Shown: positions 35 through 40,141, counted from the stretch's first letter. The stretch is DNA of 64,000 bases from Candidatus Nanohaloarchaea archaeon (GCA_042217575.1 JBDGSK010000014.1:10930-74929); one strand, 5' to 3'. Made by a program: numbers and translations. The notes: a model not told the origin generated them from the letters alone.

Positions 35-397
35 TTACACATCTAGCTCGGCTTCAAGCTGGTCAAGAACGCCTTCCTGAATCCCGATGAAGCGTTTTTC
101 CTGCCTGGTTCTTCGAAACTCGTCGGTCTCTATCTCGCGTCCCGACTCTCTCTTCCCTGTCTCTATCTCTTTCTTGACGACCTCAATGACCCCCTTTTCC
201 TCCAGCGACTCCACAACCGATTCCTCATCCTCTACCGGGTTCTGGTCGGCAAGTTCCTGCATTTCCTCGTTCAGCCCCTGTTCAGGCAACAGGAGAGCAG
301 AGCTCGTCAGGACATTGCGCCATTTTTCACCGTATAGTTCCCTGGTGTACCCGATGATGTTACGGAGATATCTCCTCTCTCCCGTGGAAAGGTTCAT
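35..397 (-). CDS. small acidic protein, putative winged-helix partner of 394..1122 (paralog of 35355..35678)
   Basis: This 120-aa ORF has an ATGA start/stop overlap with the upstream gene. It starts MNLS like 35355..35678. Both share ESL(E/K)xxG(V/L)(I/L) followed by a basic wing-like segment. Confidence 0.55.
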   Translation of the reverse strand: MNLSTGERRYLRNIIGYTRELYGEKWRNVLTSSALLLPEQGLNEEMQELADQNPVEDEESVVESLEEKGVIEVVKKEIETGKRESGREIETDEFRRTRQEKRFIGIQEGVLDQLEAELDV

Positions 398-1122
398 TCT
401 ATCCTCCGGAGAATTGTTTCCTCCGAGTTCTTGATAAACTCAAGGGCATTGCTGTAGGTCGAATATGAGGGGTTCATGTACTCCGATAGCTCTACATCGT
501 TCTCTTCCAGATACTGTTCGGCCGCGTCCTTGGCAAGTATTTCCTCTCTTGCCGACCGGTACCGGTCAAACCGTTCATGGAGTTCCCGGCTTTCCTCCCG
601 CGCTACAGCTCCCATCTGCTGGAAGTCCCTGTAGAGGCTCTCAAGTTCCTCGTCGAGCTCCTCTCCGGCGTACTTTTCTCTTTCACTTAAATAACGCTGT
701 TTCGCTCTGTAGAGTGCATGCAATTCCTCATTCCCTGTTTCAAGCGGTTCGACCATCCCCTCTGCAAGCCTTGCGACGAACTCGCCGTAGAGCCTTTGAT
801 TGATCGGGTTGTCCGAAGGTATCCCATCCATCCTGGCGTTAGGCTGCAACATCTGGCCGTGAACCGCCTCGTGGGCGAGCTCTGCCGGTCTGAGATCAGA
901 GGAGTAAAGCAGTTCCACTTCGCCTTCAACAACGCGTGTAGTGGCTCTCGTGTCGGAAACAGAGCCCTGATTTACTTCCTGGCCAAGTTCAGCACTTCTA
1001 GCGCTGTCAAACGAATCTCTCGCCGAGAATCCCAGGGTGTCATTAATCCGGGAAAACTCCTGCTCTCCTATACCTGAGTCCTCCAGAATTCTATCAACAT
1101 CTCCCGCAGACAACCCTCTCAT
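394..1122 (-). CDS. uncharacterized acidic protein with intact HExxH motif (copy 1 of a 4-copy paralog family)
   Basis: The track ORF is 394..1239. I trimmed it to ATG 1122 (MRGLSAGD...), where similarity to 35675..36460, 36516..37271 and 37299..38141 begins. HEAVH is encoded at 859..873. Shared blocks are LxYSxxLxxxELA, LYxEFVA and a C-terminal E/DF(I/M)xP. Confidence 0.65.
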   Translation of the reverse strand: MRGLSAGDVDRILEDSGIGEQEFSRINDTLGFSARDSFDSARSAELGQEVNQGSVSDTRATTRVVEGEVELLYSSDLRPAELAHEAVHGQMLQPNARMDGIPSDNPINQRLYGEFVARLAEGMVEPLETGNEELHALYRAKQRYLSEREKYAGEELDEELESLYRDFQQMGAVAREESRELHERFDRYRSAREEILAKDAAEQYLEENDVELSEYMNPSYSTYSNALEFIKNSEETILRRIE

Positions 1123-1184
1123 ATCTACCAGTAAGTAACAACACTTCAAAAGGTTTTTGGTTTTCCATGATGTCTGCGGCACTG

Positions 1185-1191
1185 ATTTAAG
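1185..1191 (+). promoter_or_regulatory. TATA-like box for mre11 (leaderless-type spacing)
   Basis: An ATTTAAG box lies 23-29 nt upstream of the in-frame GTG at 1214. Confidence 0.35.
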
Positions 1192-1213
1192 CTTCAGTAG
1201 CGCCAGTTTTGAC

Positions 1214-2416
1214 GTGAAAGTTTCTATAATCAGTGACACCCACTTTGGCTACAAGTGGGGCGAGGAACGCGGAGAGGATGCGTTCGAGAACGCGAAGGAG
1301 GCATTTGAAAACAGCCTTGACGCGGATCTGATAATACTGCCCGGCGACATATTCGACCGGAAGATCCCGAAGCAGGAGGTTCTTGACCGTGCCGCAGAGG
1401 TTCTTTCTGTGGCGATGGAAGGTGAAAGCGACGCTGAGCCGGATAAGGAGCTTGGGATGCACGGCAACGGGATACCTGTAGTCGCGATCCACGGGACGCA
1501 CGAGAGAAGGCCGCGCTCCTACACTAATCCGATCGAGTTGATGGACAGAACCGGCCAGCTGTACCATTTGGACAACGAAAAAGTTATCTTCGAGAAAGAT
1601 GGCGAAAAAGTTGCTGTCCACGGAATGAGCGGAGTACCTGAACGTTACGCGCCGAAGGTGCTTGAAAAGTTTGATCCGGAACCTGTTGAGGACGCTTTCA
1701 ATATTCTCGTGGTGCACCAGTCGATTGAAGGGTTCGTCTACACCAGTGATGATCACGACGTTTTATCGCTTGAAGACTTCCCTGAAGGTTTCGATCTGAT
1801 CATCGACGGCCACATCCACTGGTACAACCTGGACAGGTTCAACGACCCGGACAGAGAAGACGAGAAACCTCTCGTGCTCCCGGGGAGTACTGTAACGACG
1901 CAGATGCGAAAGGTGGAAGCGGAGAAGGACAAAGGCTTCCTGATGCTTGACACCGAAACAGAGGAACTGGACTTCCGGCCGCTTGAATCCCCGAGAGAAG
2001 TTCACTACATAGAGCTGGAAGTCGAGGGAGAGCCATGGACGGAAGTGAAGGAGCACGCGATCAATGAGTTGAAGCAGGTCGGAGGCGAGAAGCCTCTGGT
2101 CAACCTGAAGATCGACGGAGAGACTGAAGGAAGGGTGAACCCGAGAGAGCTCAAGCAGATGTTCCGCGATGAGATGTTTCTGAACGTCAACTCTTCTGTG
2201 GATCGTACAGAGATCAGCTCCGAGTCCAGTCTTGAAAGTGAGAAAGACCCGTGGACGCAGGGCAAGGAAATGCTCCGGGAGCAGGTCGAAGCCGATGACC
2301 TGGATCTGGATGAGTTCCTGCAGCTGCTTGAAAGCGGCGAGGTAGAGGGATCAATAGAAAAGCTGAAGAACACGGAATTTGAGGAGAGACAGCATGATAA
2401 CGAGGATACAGGTTGA
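1214..2416 (+). CDS. mre11: DNA double-strand break repair nuclease Mre11
   Basis: Calcineurin-like phosphoesterase motifs are present: IISDTHFG, PGDIFD, AIHGTHE, GHIHW. The track ORF starts at TTG 1157. GTG 1214 places the start just before motif I, as is usual for archaeal Mre11. The exact start is uncertain. Confidence 0.85.
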   Translation: MKVSIISDTHFGYKWGEERGEDAFENAKEAFENSLDADLIILPGDIFDRKIPKQEVLDRAAEVLSVAMEGESDAEPDKELGMHGNGIPVVAIHGTHERRPRSYTNPIELMDRTGQLYHLDNEKVIFEKDGEKVAVHGMSGVPERYAPKVLEKFDPEPVEDAFNILVVHQSIEGFVYTSDDHDVLSLEDFPEGFDLIIDGHIHWYNLDRFNDPDREDEKPLVLPGSTVTTQMRKVEAEKDKGFLMLDTETEELDFRPLESPREVHYIELEVEGEPWTEVKEHAINELKQVGGEKPLVNLKIDGETEGRVNPRELKQMFRDEMFLNVNSSVDRTEISSESSLESEKDPWTQGKEMLREQVEADDLDLDEFLQLLESGEVEGSIEKLKNTEFEERQHDNEDTG

Positions 2417-35354: not shown

Positions 35355-35678
35355 TTACCGGTTTCGCATCCAGTCCAGAAGCTCCCTGCTGAACCTCAGG
35401 TATCTGACCTTTTCCTTGCGGAAGCCGTAAGAGTTTTCATCAGTCACTGTCCTTTTCTCAGTCCGTTCTTCCTCGTCCAGAAGCCCGCGCTGCTTCAGGG
35501 ACTCAAGTTCGGTTTCGACCGCCAGTCCCGACCTCTGCTTCACCGTATCCATCGCCTCCTCGGGGAAACCTTCCTCTTCCAGCATCTCTACAGGGTCAGA
35601 ATCGTCGATCCGGGCGAGCTCCTCCGCGTATTCAAGCATCGCTTCCAGCAGGTCTTCTTCTCTACCGGACAGGTTCAT
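35355..35678 (-). CDS. small acidic protein, putative winged-helix partner (paralog of 35..397)
   Basis: This 107-aa ORF starts MNLS and has an ATGA overlap with 35675..36460. [11 protein letters not shown] followed by a basic segment resembles a wHTH recognition helix plus wing. Confidence 0.55.
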
Positions 35679-36460
35679 CTTTTCTCAAACTTTGCTTCTT
35701 CGACGTCGTTGATGAACTGCATGGTTTCGCCGTACTTTATGACGCCGGGCAGCATGAAATCGCTTATAGGCGCTCCAGGGTAAAGTTCGTTAAACCTCTT
35801 CGCGGCTATCTTCGACAGGGTCTTTTCCCGCTGCTCCTGGTAGCGGTTCAGCGCGGAGATGTAGTTCTGTTTGAGACCAGGTTTCACCGGTTTTTCCGAG
35901 GCCACTTCTCTTTTCGTGAGAAGCCGTCTCCGGCCAGGATAGCTTGGAAGACTTTCCTCGATTTCCTTCTCGAATGCTTCCTCCATGTCCTGGTAATCGC
36001 GCCAGGCGTTCGCGAACTGGGCTTTTTCCTGTCCCGAGATGTCGATGCCGTCAATCTTCTCCCGCGGCAGTTGCAGCGCGAACTGTTTGTAGGTCTTGCG
36101 TTCAAAACCGTCGTCGTTAGGCAGAACACCTCCCATCTCCTGCTGGAGTTTCAGCATCTTCCCATGCATCAGCAGTGAGGCCAGTTCTCCGGCTGTCATG
36201 CCCTCTGAGTAGGCAAGCACCACAGGTTCTTTGCCTGGATCCGTGATCCCTGCTTCCCGGAAAACCCGGTTCGCGGGCTGGTCATCGATCTCTGCTCTTC
36301 TTATCTTGTCCGCGCTATTCTCCAGGCCGGTGCCGAGAACGCGTTCGATCCCTTCAACATCCATCGACGTCAGATCGAATTCTTCCTCGAGAATTTTCTT
36401 CGACTCAGCATTCCAGCCTTTTCCGCGTTCAGAATCGTGGAGGACGGGCGCGTCTTCCAT
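35675..36460 (-). CDS. uncharacterized acidic protein, paralog family copy 2 (HExxH position degenerate)
   Basis: The 261-aa protein aligns with the other copies at WNAESKKILEEEFDLTS, VVLAYSEGMTAGELASLLMHGKM, TYKQFALQL and SDFMLPGVIKYGETMQFI. Confidence 0.65.
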   Translation of the reverse strand: MEDAPVLHDSERGKGWNAESKKILEEEFDLTSMDVEGIERVLGTGLENSADKIRRAEIDDQPANRVFREAGITDPGKEPVVLAYSEGMTAGELASLLMHGKMLKLQQEMGGVLPNDDGFERKTYKQFALQLPREKIDGIDISGQEKAQFANAWRDYQDMEEAFEKEIEESLPSYPGRRRLLTKREVASEKPVKPGLKQNYISALNRYQEQREKTLSKIAAKRFNELYPGAPISDFMLPGVIKYGETMQFINDVEEAKFEKR

Positions 36461-36515
36461 GTCGTTACATCCGGCTCGTAAAAATAAATAGGTTGTGGAG
36501 GAGAATAGAGTTTTT

Positions 36516-37271
36516 TCAGCGCCTGTCCTGGTTTCTCAGCGAGAACTTGAGGTCTTCGAAGCCCTTCATGTAGTAGAGCGCGTCCTTCGTGTCGTCTTCC
36601 TCCGGTACTATGAAGTCTGCGGCGCGGTAGCCCGGGAAGACTTCAAGGTTTCGGGCCGCTTTCCGCGTCAGTGTTTCGCGTCGGGCGCGGTGCTTGTCGA
36701 GTATCCTGTTTCGAAGCTTTTCCCGCGCCTCATCCTTTACTATGCGGGAGTTTTCTTCGTCAGTCTCCACGAACTCCTGGTAGAGGTTGTCAAAGCTTCG
36801 CGGGAAGCCATAGGTATGTGCTTTCTGCTTCGCGCCTTCGTACTTTGAAATGGCGTTGACTATGCGTTTTCGATGCGATGAGTTGAACTCTACGTCCTCG
36901 ACAGTGTCTCGAGCGACGAAGCCGACAAAGTCAAGGTAGAGCTGTGTGTCCCAGGGGTTCATGCCTGCGAGGAACGTTCCTACGCGGCCGTTCATCGAGT
37001 AGTTCATCGACTTGGCGATCGCTGCCTGGTGGGCGAGGTCGCCCTCCGAAAGTTCTCCGGAATAGGTCAGCGTAATCCTTCCATCGGAGCCGAGTTCCGT
37101 CCTTGCGGTAGTATAGTCTTTCTCCGTATCCTCGTTTATCGCGCCGAAAGTACCGTGCATCGACGTGCCTAACTCCTCTTCTATGTGTGATACCTGCTCC
37201 TCGGAGAAGTTGAGTGTATCGATAATCATCTGGCGAGAGTTCTCGTTCCACCCAAAGTCATCGGCAGCCAT
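36516..37271 (-). CDS. uncharacterized acidic protein, paralog family copy 3 (HExxH position degenerate)
   Basis: The 251-aa protein has GWNENSRQMIIDTLNFSEEQV, ITLTYSGELSEGDLAHQAAIAKSM, LYLDFVGFVA and ADFIVPEEDDTKDALYYM. Confidence 0.65.
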   Translation of the reverse strand: MAADDFGWNENSRQMIIDTLNFSEEQVSHIEEELGTSMHGTFGAINEDTEKDYTTARTELGSDGRITLTYSGELSEGDLAHQAAIAKSMNYSMNGRVGTFLAGMNPWDTQLYLDFVGFVARDTVEDVEFNSSHRKRIVNAISKYEGAKQKAHTYGFPRSFDNLYQEFVETDEENSRIVKDEAREKLRNRILDKHRARRETLTRKAARNLEVFPGYRAADFIVPEEDDTKDALYYMKGFEDLKFSLRNQDRR

Positions 37272-37298
37272 GTTGTTACTTCAAGCTCACAAGATTAT

Positions 37299-38141
37299 TT
37301 AACTGTTTCGGCTCCTGTTGAGCTGCCGCTTGTTCTCAAAGTCAGCGATTACTGAGTCCATGTAGTCGATTGTGTCGTGGAACAGCTGTTCGCTCGGGAC
37401 TATGAACTCGGAGATCTCGTAGTCTTCCTCGATGTGGTGGTACTTCTTCGCAGCTATCGGTGCTGCGCAGCCCTCAATCGCGTTGAGATAGTTCTTGATT
37501 GAGCTCTGGAACTCCCTGAGAACTTCTTTGTCAACTACTGTTTCCTTGGATATATCATATTCAAGCCAGAGTTGACTTCCCTGGTACTCCCCCGAGTTCT
37601 TCAGCTCGAGAATATCGTTTGAAGGCATTCCGTGGTCGGCTGCTTCTTTCCGCTTCTCCATGTACTCGTCGCGGGCGTCAAGTAAGTCGTAGCGAGCCCC
37701 CGCTGAAAGGAACGAGTTGGCGCTTATCTTGTCTTTTTCTTCTTCCGCGAAGTAGTTGTTAACATCGAAACGTGCAAGGTTGGCGACAAACTCCGTGTAA
37801 AGCCGTTTCGAAAAGCGGTCAGGGACAGGAAACATCTTCCCGAAGTCACGGAAATCAAAACGTTTAATCTGGCCTTTAACAGCAAGATAGGCCAAGTCCG
37901 ACGGAGAAAGCTCATCCGAGTACTGTAGAACCATCTTGTCGTCGCTGGACAGCCAGCCCATCTGGTTTACAACTCTTCCCGGTACTTCTTCATCCTCAAC
38001 TTTTACAGCGTCGTCAAACACTTCGACGCTCATGCCGAGAACTTCTTCGACTTGTGAAACTGTGGTCTCTGAGAAGTCCAAAGTATCCTTTATGACCTCA
38101 GTAGAGTCCTCATCCCAGGAACCTTGTCCAGTTGCCGCCAT
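37299..38141 (-). CDS. uncharacterized acidic protein, paralog family copy 4 (HExxH position degenerate)
   Basis: The 280-aa protein has SWDEDSTEVIKDTLDFSETTV, MVLQYSDELSPSDLAYLAVKGQI, LYTEFVANLA and SEFIVPSEQLFHDTIDYM. Confidence 0.65.
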   Translation of the reverse strand: MAATGQGSWDEDSTEVIKDTLDFSETTVSQVEEVLGMSVEVFDDAVKVEDEEVPGRVVNQMGWLSSDDKMVLQYSDELSPSDLAYLAVKGQIKRFDFRDFGKMFPVPDRFSKRLYTEFVANLARFDVNNYFAEEEKDKISANSFLSAGARYDLLDARDEYMEKRKEAADHGMPSNDILELKNSGEYQGSQLWLEYDISKETVVDKEVLREFQSSIKNYLNAIEGCAAPIAAKKYHHIEEDYEISEFIVPSEQLFHDTIDYMDSVIADFENKRQLNRSRNS

Positions 38142-38196
38142 GTCACTACATTAAGATGACGAAAGGCTAAAAGTTTTGCGGCCTTAGAGATGCCAG

Positions 38197-38389: not shown

Positions 38390-40141
38390 ATGGGCTTGGC
38401 AGGTCAGAAAGGAGACAGAGATAACTCCAGCGAACTTTTAGCAGTCTTCGAAGAGCTCACTGACAGCAGGAGCGACCCAGGCCGCCTTAACGGCGACGGT
38501 TCAGATATACTCTACACCACTTCGAGGGATATCGTCAGCGCTTTCGAAGGAGAGAAGTTTAAAGCGGTCCTCCACGGCCGCATCGACAACGAAGCCAGTC
38601 TCCGAGAAGAGTTTGGAGTTTCAGAGGAGATTTCGCGAGCAGAGCTGATAGTTGAGATTTACAGAGAGGAAGGCGAGAAGTTTCAGGAAGAACTCTTGGG
38701 CAGTTACACGTTTGTAATATACGACTTGAGGTCAGAGAAACTCCTGCTCGGGAGAGACGCCACCGGTCTTCAATCGCTCTACTACTCAGTTAAAGAGGAC
38801 CTTGTCATCTTCTCCACCGAAATCTCCGCTCTGATTGAACACGAAGACTTAAGCTGTGGAACTAACAGGGAAGCAGTCGCCAGTTATCTGAAAGGCGAGA
38901 TGGATAGAAGAGAGGAGACTTTCTACCAGGATATCAAACGTCTGCCTCCTGACTCAACACTTGTAATCGATGAAGAGGTCCGCCTTTTGGAACACTGTAG
39001 TCTGAAGGATGAGTTCAGAGGAAACAGTACAGAATCCGCTAAAAGTCTCCGTGAAGTCCTCGAGGAACCAGTCAAGGACCGCTTAGAAGACCGCAAAAAA
39101 GTCGGTGTTCTTATGAGCGGAGGCCTCGACTCTACAGCTGTAGCGAGCATAGCTTACTCCTTCGACAGAGACGTAGAAGCATTATCGATGCTCTTCGACA
39201 GGTTCGAGGAAGCCGACGAGCGGGAAAGAATCAGCGACGCTGCAGAAGAAATAGGTCTGGACGTTAGAAAGCATAGAGGCGACGAGGAAACTCCTTCAAT
39301 CAATGACGAACTTCTCGGAGATCTGATGCGGAACGGACCCTGCGTCAATCCCAACTCAAGAGCCAGCCACAAAAGCTACGTAGAAGCCTCAGAGAACGGT
39401 TTTGACATACTTCTATCCGGGGGCGGAGGCAATATCCTTGACGGCAGCCGGCTCGCGTACGCCGACATGCTCAGAAACGGAGAACTTGAAAAGTTCGTCC
39501 GCACCGCCAGAAATGACTCTCTTTCAAACCGTCAAATCATAGGCTGGTGCGGGCTAGCGCCGCTTTTCCCGCGGTTAGCAAGTCTTATAGTCTCAGAAAA
39601 GAGCGAAGTACATCAAGAACTACTCGCCGAAGAGTACCTGGATAGAGAGGTTGAAGACATAGGAGCAGAAGTCAAAAGACTGGAGGCCGAACAGATGCTT
39701 GGAAGTATTCTCTCACCTGAAGTCGATATACAGATGGACATAGGCCGTAAACTGGCCCTGAAAGAAGGCATCGAGCTTAGATACCCCTACATGGATGAAA
39801 GGGTTCTAAGATTTGTAGCCCACACCGAAACCGGCACGCTCTTCGGAGAAAACGGGCATAAAACCGCTTTCCGCCAGGCATTCAGTGAAGACCTACCTGA
39901 ATCCATAATAGATTACGACGGAAACGAGACGCTTGAACCATTAATAAGACACTCGCTCTGTGAAGCCGAGTCAGATGAAATAAAGTCAGAACTGGACTCC
40001 TCTATTTTAGAGAAAAAAGGGATTGTCAAGAAGGGCGCATCAAAAACCCTCTACAAGAGATACAGAAAGGGAGAGGTATCTACCTCAGTCTTCTGGAGAT
40101 ACCTCTCCACTGAAATCTGGCTATCCAACCGGTTTAACTGA
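38390..40141 (+). CDS. asparagine synthetase B-like ATP-dependent amidotransferase/amide synthetase lacking the N-terminal Cys nucleophile
   Basis: The PP-loop [10 protein letters not shown] is present, with an Ntn/GATase-II-like N-domain ([32 protein letters not shown]). The protein begins MGLAG instead of MCG. The NGE position reads HGR. Confidence 0.8.

Follow-up and report, generated by a model that had tools for sequence, protein, structure and literature searches.

A predicted zincin-like protein family of nanohaloarchaea, its small winged-helix-like partners and a conserved branch of probable pseudo-peptidases

The closest described counterparts of the genes considered here are systems in which a metallopeptidase cleaves a small regulatory protein. 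The gluzincin BlaR1 has the winged-helix repressor BlaI as its direct substrate, and the two are encoded together in the blaR1-blaI operon (PMC9834060). IrrE, in turn, cleaves DdrO, and in Deinococcus this pair controls DNA-repair genes (PMC6868357, PMC12828697). Here, we analyze a stretch of 64,000 nucleotides (hereafter the window, with positions counted from its first letter) from a metagenome-assembled genome of Candidatus Nanohaloarchaea (GCA_042217575.1 JBDGSK010000014.1:10930-74929). It holds three consecutive genes for large hypothetical proteins (A, B and C), a small gene (w1) at the end of this triplet, and a fourth large gene (D) with a small partner of its own (w2). As will be detailed below, the large proteins very probably represent a new zincin-like family for which catalysis is predicted, and the triplet appears to be a conserved, catalytically dead branch of that family.

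That these genes belong together had been proposed in a sequence-only reading of the same DNA, which took A, B and C for paralogs sharing four sequence blocks and pointed to a further copy, with its own partner, at 35-1122. Both proposals held. Full-length pairwise BLASTP relates A to B, A to C and B to C with E values of 6e-17, 4e-16 and 1e-11, respectively, far under the limit of 1e-3 that the reading had set for itself, and relates A to D at 2e-12. The open reading frames (ORFs) stand where they had been placed, on the minus strand, and a scan of the window with a family hidden Markov model returned exactly four large members and two partners. The description of the family as acidic fared less well. 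Isoelectric points (pI) run from 4.2 to 5.4 across all sampled proteins of the window, including Mre11/Rad50, and S19e has a pI of 4.9; because neighboring housekeeping proteins are equally acidic, acidity is no family trait, and the proteome-wide pattern is consistent with a salt-in halophile.

The case for a zincin rests on an alignment of 33 family sequences, on the 20 members that bear an HExxH motif, and on a structural model (family residues are numbered as in D). The family consensus reads LAHExVHGxM ... LYxEFVAxLAE, and the HExxH-bearing members all have H84, H88, Y112 and E114, with E85 kept in at least 90% of them. In an AlphaFold2 (AF2) model of D built on this alignment, with a predicted local distance difference test score (pLDDT) of 93.1 and a predicted template modeling score of 0.91, N-terminal helices lead into a five-stranded sheet (strands within 40-73, the last at 68-73). 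This is followed by a helix at 79-92, inside which the HEAVH of residues 84-88 falls, by a second long helix at 106-124 carrying the invariant E114, 26 residues past the second histidine (H88), and finally by a helical C-terminal subdomain. Moreover, the shared blocks correspond to predicted structural elements: the second takes in the strand before the HExxH helix and the start of that helix, the third is the next, "glutamate" helix with an invariant Tyr and Phe, and the fourth holds a family-invariant Pro. What had been described in the triplet as a central block is the edge strand together with a degraded remnant of the catalytic helix.

Structural searches point in the same direction. When the D model was compared with the PDB by Foldseek, seven of the eight best matches were gluzincins (MATCAP, IRAP, an M61 peptidase and aminopeptidase N among them), none reaching E<=1e-3. 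In BFVD, which covers viral proteins, the best match is annotated "Peptidase" (E 7e-4, probability 1.0) and another "Lethal factor" (probability 0.99); lower matches include M34, polyvalent-protein, SprT and IrrE entries, the IrrE-annotated protein standing at rank 47 with an E of 1.4. Modeled in this way, the family looks like a set of soluble proteins, ~240 aa long and built like zincin metallopeptidases of the gluzincin type, and D-type proteins would be expected to bind zinc and to act as proteases. The HExxH site might instead be no peptidase center at all and serve in metal binding, in some other hydrolase activity or in structure, with A, B and C as a metal-independent version of the same function. 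Such a reading can draw on the lack of any significant sequence or PDB structural match to characterized peptidases, and on the more than one third of family clusters that persist without the motif. We nonetheless think it quite unlikely, as an invariant His, His and Glu, in classic spacing on consecutive helices after the edge strand of a sheet, is the defining zincin arrangement, and the structural neighbors are overwhelmingly metallopeptidases.

No current protein library holds this family. The six window proteins had no match in Pfam, NCBIfam, PHROGs or PADLOC beyond sub-threshold ones, the sole PADLOC match being a chance-level E of 0.028 for B. Searching Pfam with all 33 family members yielded none, even at E<=10, and PDB sequence-profile searches with mixed and active-only profiles gave no match. 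The earlier statement that the large proteins fall into no named family thus stands with respect to Pfam, NCBIfam, PHROG, PADLOC and PDB sequences, whose profiles yielded no confident match to a known housekeeping family either. It does need to be qualified, in that the consensus carries a zincin HExxH...E and the model a zincin layout. Word-indexed homolog searches saturate on acidic low-complexity words at 6-15 matches, and an exhaustive profile search was therefore used. Since this search of 1.84 billion representative proteins gave only 30 matches, 29 of them true clusters at 50% identity and one spurious, the family must be considered tiny. The spurious match, a 758-aa repeat protein (P0038), was rejected as a member. 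All named members come from Candidatus Nanohaloarchaea or Nanohalobium, in keeping with the suggestion of a lineage-specific system. Using the D subgroup as query, a related-locus search found one genome locus and nothing in viral and JGI metagenome contigs, tblastn of D found nothing in phage and plasmid records, and the literature searched held no link between nanohaloarchaea and an HExxH family. The family is previously unnamed and restricted to Nanohaloarchaeota.

Specificity to a lineage of obligate ectosymbionts, along with rapid diversification and tandem paralogs, might recommend these proteins as effectors delivered to the haloarchaeal host, with paralog diversity tracking host targets. 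This seems to us a very faint prospect. The large proteins are strongly hydrophilic, with a grand average of hydropathy of -0.6 to -0.8, and have neither signal peptide nor transmembrane segment; each folds as one compact domain and has none that would serve in delivery; and the coupled partner and common promoter element described below fit an intracellular circuit better.

The triplet differs in kind from the fourth copy because A, B and C are catalytically dead and D is intact. All A-, B- and C-type proteins, their orthologs and the other degenerate members lack HExxH and carry Arg or Lys at the glutamate of LAE. In A, B and C themselves this residue is Arg, the equivalent of E114 is Glu, Asp and Gln, respectively, and the combination of HExxH and a Glu ligand that marks an active zincin is found in none of the three. 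Judged from the alignment, the predicted general base and metal ligands have been lost from this branch. A neighbor-joining tree computed without bootstrap sets the active members apart from a single clade of degenerate types, made up of A, B and C and two more, which suggests a single ancestral loss of the catalytic site, followed by triplication. Each of the three types has orthologs in other assemblies. Comparison with a syntenic relative (locus L001) gives proportions of nonsynonymous (pN) and synonymous (pS) differences of 0.16-0.23 and 0.73-0.81 (the latter saturated) for A, B and C, all with intact ORFs; A alone is 76% identical to its ortholog, with pN 0.16 and pS 0.73. Amino acid identity of the paralogs to this relative is 64-76%, as against 75-93% for flanking housekeeping genes. 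By these measures A, B and C are under purifying selection and not decaying. As the motif has been lost and purifying selection nevertheless retained, the three are probably pseudo-peptidases. Dead members and several active ones also share, at their very N-terminus, a short motif of Trp and acidic residues (G-W-[ND]-E-[ND]-S or W-[ED]-[ND]-Y), seen for example as GSWDEDS at residues 7-13 of A; it might serve in autoinhibition or docking.

The second component of the system is the small partner. Every HExxH member with readable downstream DNA (window D and loci L002-L005, L007, L009-L013 and L015) has a small ORF of 107-134 aa directly behind it, overlapping or a few nucleotides away, and Nanohalobium-type loci have two tandem partner genes. 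The ancestral unit is a peptidase gene followed by one or two small winged-helix genes, joined by a 4-bp overlap or a few nucleotides; the repeated two-gene module previously noted in the window accordingly recurs in related genomes. C is the one dead type that still has a partner. The ATGA overlap reported for this pair is real, the C/w1 junction reading AAA AGA TGA / ATG AAC CT, and the same overlap is found at D/w2. Both w1 and w2 have the N-terminus ATGAACCT. BLASTP between them reaches only E=0.33, and the w2-type profile alone fails to retrieve w1, but hhalign matches the w1-type and w2-type profiles over residues 1-71 with a probability of 95% and an E of 3e-8; on this profile comparison, the two types are homologous.

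With regard to fold, Pfam provides only sub-threshold helix-turn-helix matches to the partner (HTH_56, E 0.06; LexA_DNA_bind, E 0.13), and a PDB profile search of it found nothing relevant. The AF2 model of w2, based on 15 homologs and of moderate confidence (pLDDT 73.9), has the topology H1-S1-H2-H3-hairpin wing-H4, with helices at 5-31, 42-50 and 58-67, a strand at 35-37, a hairpin at 71-80/97-106 that forms a long wing, disordered at its tip, and a helix at the C-terminus. Its top PDB Foldseek matches are essentially all winged-helix proteins, including TFE/TFIIE-alpha, ORC winged-helix domains, RTP, PadR (TM 0.49-0.55), MarR and Lrs14-like proteins, none of them significant (all E at least 0.08). 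The model supports the winged-helix fold that had been guessed for the partner. The wing is basic, and the putative recognition helix of Nanohalobium-type partners is more Lys/Gln-rich; the partner may bind DNA.

A possible target lies in the promoters (Table 1). A TATA-like box precedes the ATG of every family gene by ~25-35 nt, as it does in other genes of the genome, and this spacing suggests transcripts that are leaderless or nearly so, in separate transcription units. The triplet had been placed at the head of an S19e-to-FtsY gene string; it does adjoin that string, but because A, B, C and S19e each carry their own TATA-like box, ~25-32 nt before the start, an operon-head role is not supported. 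Between TATA box and ATG, the family genes alone carry a further, conserved element, with the consensus TTG(T/C)(G/C)A-N8-T(A/T)ACA(A/G), which ends 1-3 nt before the start. The 20-bp element, a pattern defined post hoc, occurs nine times where 0.27 occurrences are expected, each abutting a family ATG, and nine of the 10 occurrences of the exact word AGTAACAA in 11 loci are at family-gene starts. GTAAC(A/G)AC-ATG appears in the window only at B and C, and the element is no general start context in the genome. In more distant lineages, this position is taken by short inverted repeats of other sequence. Reverse-complemented, the half-site of D, GTTGTTACTT, matches exactly the 10 nt directly before the ATG of B; it lies 10 nt further upstream, in the ~94-bp divergent intergenic region common to D and mre11. 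The count of this 10-mer, which D and B share in their promoters, does not reach significance with one mismatch allowed, and any meaning it may have rests on its position and its conservation across loci. Because a cis element is kept across paralogs with only 20-30% protein identity, the pattern argues for common, dedicated transcriptional control of the family genes, and the candidate regulator that suggests itself for this element is the winged-helix protein encoded alongside.

Table 1. Positions in the window of the family genes, their partners, their promoter features and one neighboring gene.
Feature	Position	Strand	Locus tag	Description
Paralog A	37299-38141	-	ABEJ98_01145	280 aa; YLAVK replaces HExxH, LAR replaces LAE; no partner gene
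Paralog B	36516-37271	-		251 aa; HQAAI replaces HExxH, VAR replaces LAE; no partner gene
Paralog C	35675-36460	-	ABEJ98_01135	261 aa; SLLMH replaces HExxH, LPR replaces LAE; 4-bp overlap with w1
Partner w1	35355-35678	-		107 aa, winged-helix-like; ATGA overlap with C
Paralog D	394-1122	-	ABEJ98_00960	242 aa; HEAVH at residues 84-88 and invariant Glu114; predicted competent gluzincin-type metallopeptidase
Partner w2	35-397	-	ABEJ98_00955	120 aa, winged-helix-like; ATGA overlap with D
A promoter	38143-38173	-		TATA-like CTTTTAG at 38167-38173; degenerate element TCGTCA-N8-TAGTGA at 38143-38162
B TATA-like box	37295-37303	-		GTTAAATAA
B element	37273-37292	-		imperfect inverted repeat TTGTGA-N8-TAACAA, ending 1 nt before ATG
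C promoter	36461-36490	-		TATA-like TATTTATTTTTA at 36479-36490; right half-site GTAACGAC abutting ATG, 36461-36468
D promoter	1133-1153	-		TATA-like CCTTTTG at 1147-1153; half-site GTTGTTACTT at 1133-1142
AsnB-like gene	38390-40141	+		asparagine-synthase-like (GATase_7 + Asn_synthase), between A and ThrRS; its end overlaps the ThrRS end

The same promoter evidence bears on a non-regulatory account, in which the large protein would be a cytoplasmic peptidase of proteostasis or processing, the winged-helix protein a protein-binding adaptor, inhibitor or chaperone, and the dead paralogs substrate-binding scaffolds. Winged-helix folds are often mediators of protein-protein contacts, the top matches of w2 include TFE/TFIIE and ORC winged-helix domains, the recognition-helix region is acidic in w1 and w2, and in two lineages the family adjoins genes of translation and folding (S19e, eIF6 and prefoldin), all of which would suit an adaptor. 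A conserved, family-specific promoter element, however, speaks for dedicated transcriptional control, the basic wing and the Lys/Gln-rich helix of Nanohalobium-type partners are compatible with DNA binding, and divergence as fast as that described below is rare in housekeeping enzymes. On balance we regard this account as rather unlikely.

The genomic surroundings of the family are stable in some respects and fluid in others. Downstream of w1 lie the genes for S19e, a dsDNA-binding protein, eIF6, prefoldin and FtsY, and upstream of A lie the AsnB-like gene and ThrRS. In L001 the order is ThrRS-A'-B'-[4-kb insert]-C'-w1'-S19e, and the AsnB-like gene is missing. The insert (L001:9624-13817) falls exactly in the B'/C' gap and holds a cyclic oligonucleotide-based antiphage signaling system (CBASS) pair, namely a SMODS/CD-NTase (298 aa) and a Cap15 effector (217 aa), along with several small ORFs; neither a tRNA nor a clear attachment repeat could be seen in it. 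The presence of CBASS in a DPANN symbiont is notable in its own right. Because L001 holds this insert and has no AsnB-like gene, the flanks of the paralogs must tolerate insertions. At the border of the paralog block, the AsnB-like gene marks an insertion or a loss that is lineage-specific. In a distant lineage (L013:1862-5016), an active member and its partner lie divergently beside the same string, here of S19e, dsDNA-binding, L31e and eIF6 genes. The link to this ribosomal/translation cluster thus recurs, though in reversed orientation, and the S19e neighborhood may therefore be ancestral for the C-w1 pair.

The D-w2 pair, for its part, is divergent from mre11-rad50, an arrangement that recurs in L010. 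Between L010 and the window Mre11 is 84% identical, and the peptidase and partner are only 39% and 37% identical, so the module evolves far faster than its neighbor, which agrees with the diversification that the sequence-only reading had suspected. The divergent D/mre11 spacer (window 1123-1216; L010:1745-1850) contains a 22-nt block, CTGAAGCTTAAATCAGTGCCGC, identical in both genomes, which probably takes in the mre11 TATA box, and a conserved TGTTGTTACT upstream of the D-type gene. Nanohalobium-type loci (L002:3659-8574 and its equivalents in L003, L005 and L007) have in common a larger, conserved set of neighbors, in the order: a SpoU methylase, DUF1512, a 55-aa C2H2-zinc-finger-like ORF on the opposite strand and the peptidase, followed by the two partners, a ~250-aa protein and a ~132-aa ORF on the opposite strand, the last two without a Pfam match. 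Across the 64 kb of the window, ARAGORN found no tRNA gene and Rfam no family at gathering score.

Surroundings of this kind invite comparison with conflict systems, and the module could be toxin-antitoxin-like, with a zincin toxin, a partner that serves as antitoxin or immunity protein and as autorepressor, and dead copies that are decayed or repurposed cassettes. Such cassettes are seen in polymorphic toxin or COG2856-Xre type loci. The tight coupling of the gene pair would fit, as would the multi-copy family with tandem paralogs, the fast divergence relative to the adjacent Mre11 (39% vs. 84%) and a locus that accepts insertions (CBASS between B' and C' in L001, the AsnB-like gene in the window only). 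The best Foldseek matches, moreover, are phage peptidases and polyvalent-protein entries, and published work has handled COG2856 metalloprotease/HTH pairs as toxin-antitoxin systems (PMC10538038, PMC6929052). On the other hand, neither PADLOC nor PHROG has a match, the family was not found in the viral contigs, phage records and plasmids searched, and no secretion or trafficking domain is present. Synteny beside S19e or Mre11 is chromosomal and stable across genomes, without integrase, tRNA or repeat hallmarks, and purifying selection on the dead copies is unexpected for decaying cassettes. We consider this explanation doubtful, if somewhat less so than that of a non-regulatory peptidase with an adaptor.

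Our preferred reading is that of a peptidase/winged-helix regulatory module, working by the logic of BlaR1/BlaI, ImmA/ImmR or IrrE/DdrO and accompanied by catalytically dead derivatives; it has in our estimation about an even chance of being correct. The winged-helix protein would act as a dimeric regulator on the element between TATA box and start codon, an element that would overlap the start of transcription. Upon a signal, the active peptidase would bind and cleave this regulator, its presumptive substrate, and transcription would be derepressed. The dead paralogs would keep the substrate-binding scaffold and edge strand and so bind without cutting, which could make them sequestering anti-regulators, decoys or signal adaptors.

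A number of observations weigh against such a scheme. Neither the D nor the w2 model has a significant PDB Foldseek match, and TM-scores are low (0.3-0.5). The putative recognition helix starts with acidic residues in both w1 and w2, which renders canonical DNA binding by the partner uncertain, and the divergence of some partners, such as that of L013, leaves no more than their position, size and residue pattern to recognize them by. The dyad symmetry of the promoter element is modestly enriched, with 3-4 of 300 shuffles reaching the observed value for a pattern that was defined post hoc and in samples that are non-independent. The order of the genes, peptidase first, and the fold of the partner, a winged helix and not a five-helix XRE domain, differ from ImmA/IrrE. 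Finally, since A and B have no partner, their role in a protease/regulator scheme is purely conjectural.

A more elaborate version of the preferred reading would see here a soluble stress switch of nanohaloarchaea, derived from an unrelated zincin lineage, in which D-w2 controls itself and possibly mre11-rad50, and the conserved trio A, B and C acts without cleavage on the same winged-helix protein and operator, either as anti-regulators or as sensors of specific signals. We would not expect this fuller version to be right, but if it were, it would be a regulatory network of protease origin that is peculiar to a DPANN symbiont. The analysis provides a fold and a testable mechanism for ~4 kb of hypothetical proteins in a very small DPANN genome. 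The triplet, with one apparent catalytic loss, triplication and long-term retention, offers a natural example of pseudo-enzyme birth. Should the protease/regulator reading be true, the module would be among the very few specific regulatory circuits proposed for nanohaloarchaea, and one with a candidate operator. Experiments are feasible, since Nanohalobium, a genus with cultivated members, has orthologs.

In relation to known systems, the large proteins come closest in architecture to the gluzincins (MEROPS clan MA(E), with a thermolysin-like core and including M1 aminopeptidases, M61 and MATCAP), with which they share an HExxH helix, a Glu on the next helix, an edge strand directly before the catalytic helix and a helical C-terminal subdomain, and which dominate the weak PDB matches of D. 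They differ in having no significant Pfam, NCBIfam or PDB sequence match and TM-scores of ~0.3, in their small size of 240 aa as stand-alone proteins, and in the loss of the motif from A, B and C. BlaR1/MecR1-BlaI/MecI systems have the same gene order, peptidase and then winged-helix gene, but BlaR1 (M56) is a sensor integral to the membrane and carries a penicillin-binding domain, whereas the window proteins are soluble and single-domain, and Pfam detects no similarity of the large proteins or their partners to M56 or Penicillinase_R. ImmA/IrrE (M78, COG2856) is likewise a soluble HExxH...E peptidase paired with a small regulator-type protein, and its IrrE/DdrO representative shares a link to DNA repair, given that D-w2 is divergent from mre11-rad50 in two genomes. 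The His-to-Glu spacing of IrrE (H82, E83, H86 and E113) is also similar to that of D. However, none of the 33 members matches PF06114 at thresholds as lenient as E<=10, and NCBIfam likewise yields nothing. Membership in ImmA/IrrE, first considered for its HExxH spacing and HTH partner, was rejected on the missing profile match and the winged-helix partner, and the analogy is functional only. Of the regulators, PadR resembles the partner in its length of ~110 aa and its winged helix with a C-terminal helix, and gives the best TM-score (to 4esb; 0.49 by query and 0.55 by target), although the partner has no Pfam PadR match and no significant Foldseek E, starts its recognition helix with acidic residues, and has a long wing with a disordered tip. 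The dead branch, lastly, recalls the iRhoms, which are pseudo-enzymes derived from proteases. As in A, B and C, catalytic residues have been lost there, and fold and binding surfaces kept under purifying selection, in a different protease superfamily. The system is best described as a two-gene logic of an already known kind, in which the zincin-like family and its conserved pseudo-enzyme expansion are new.

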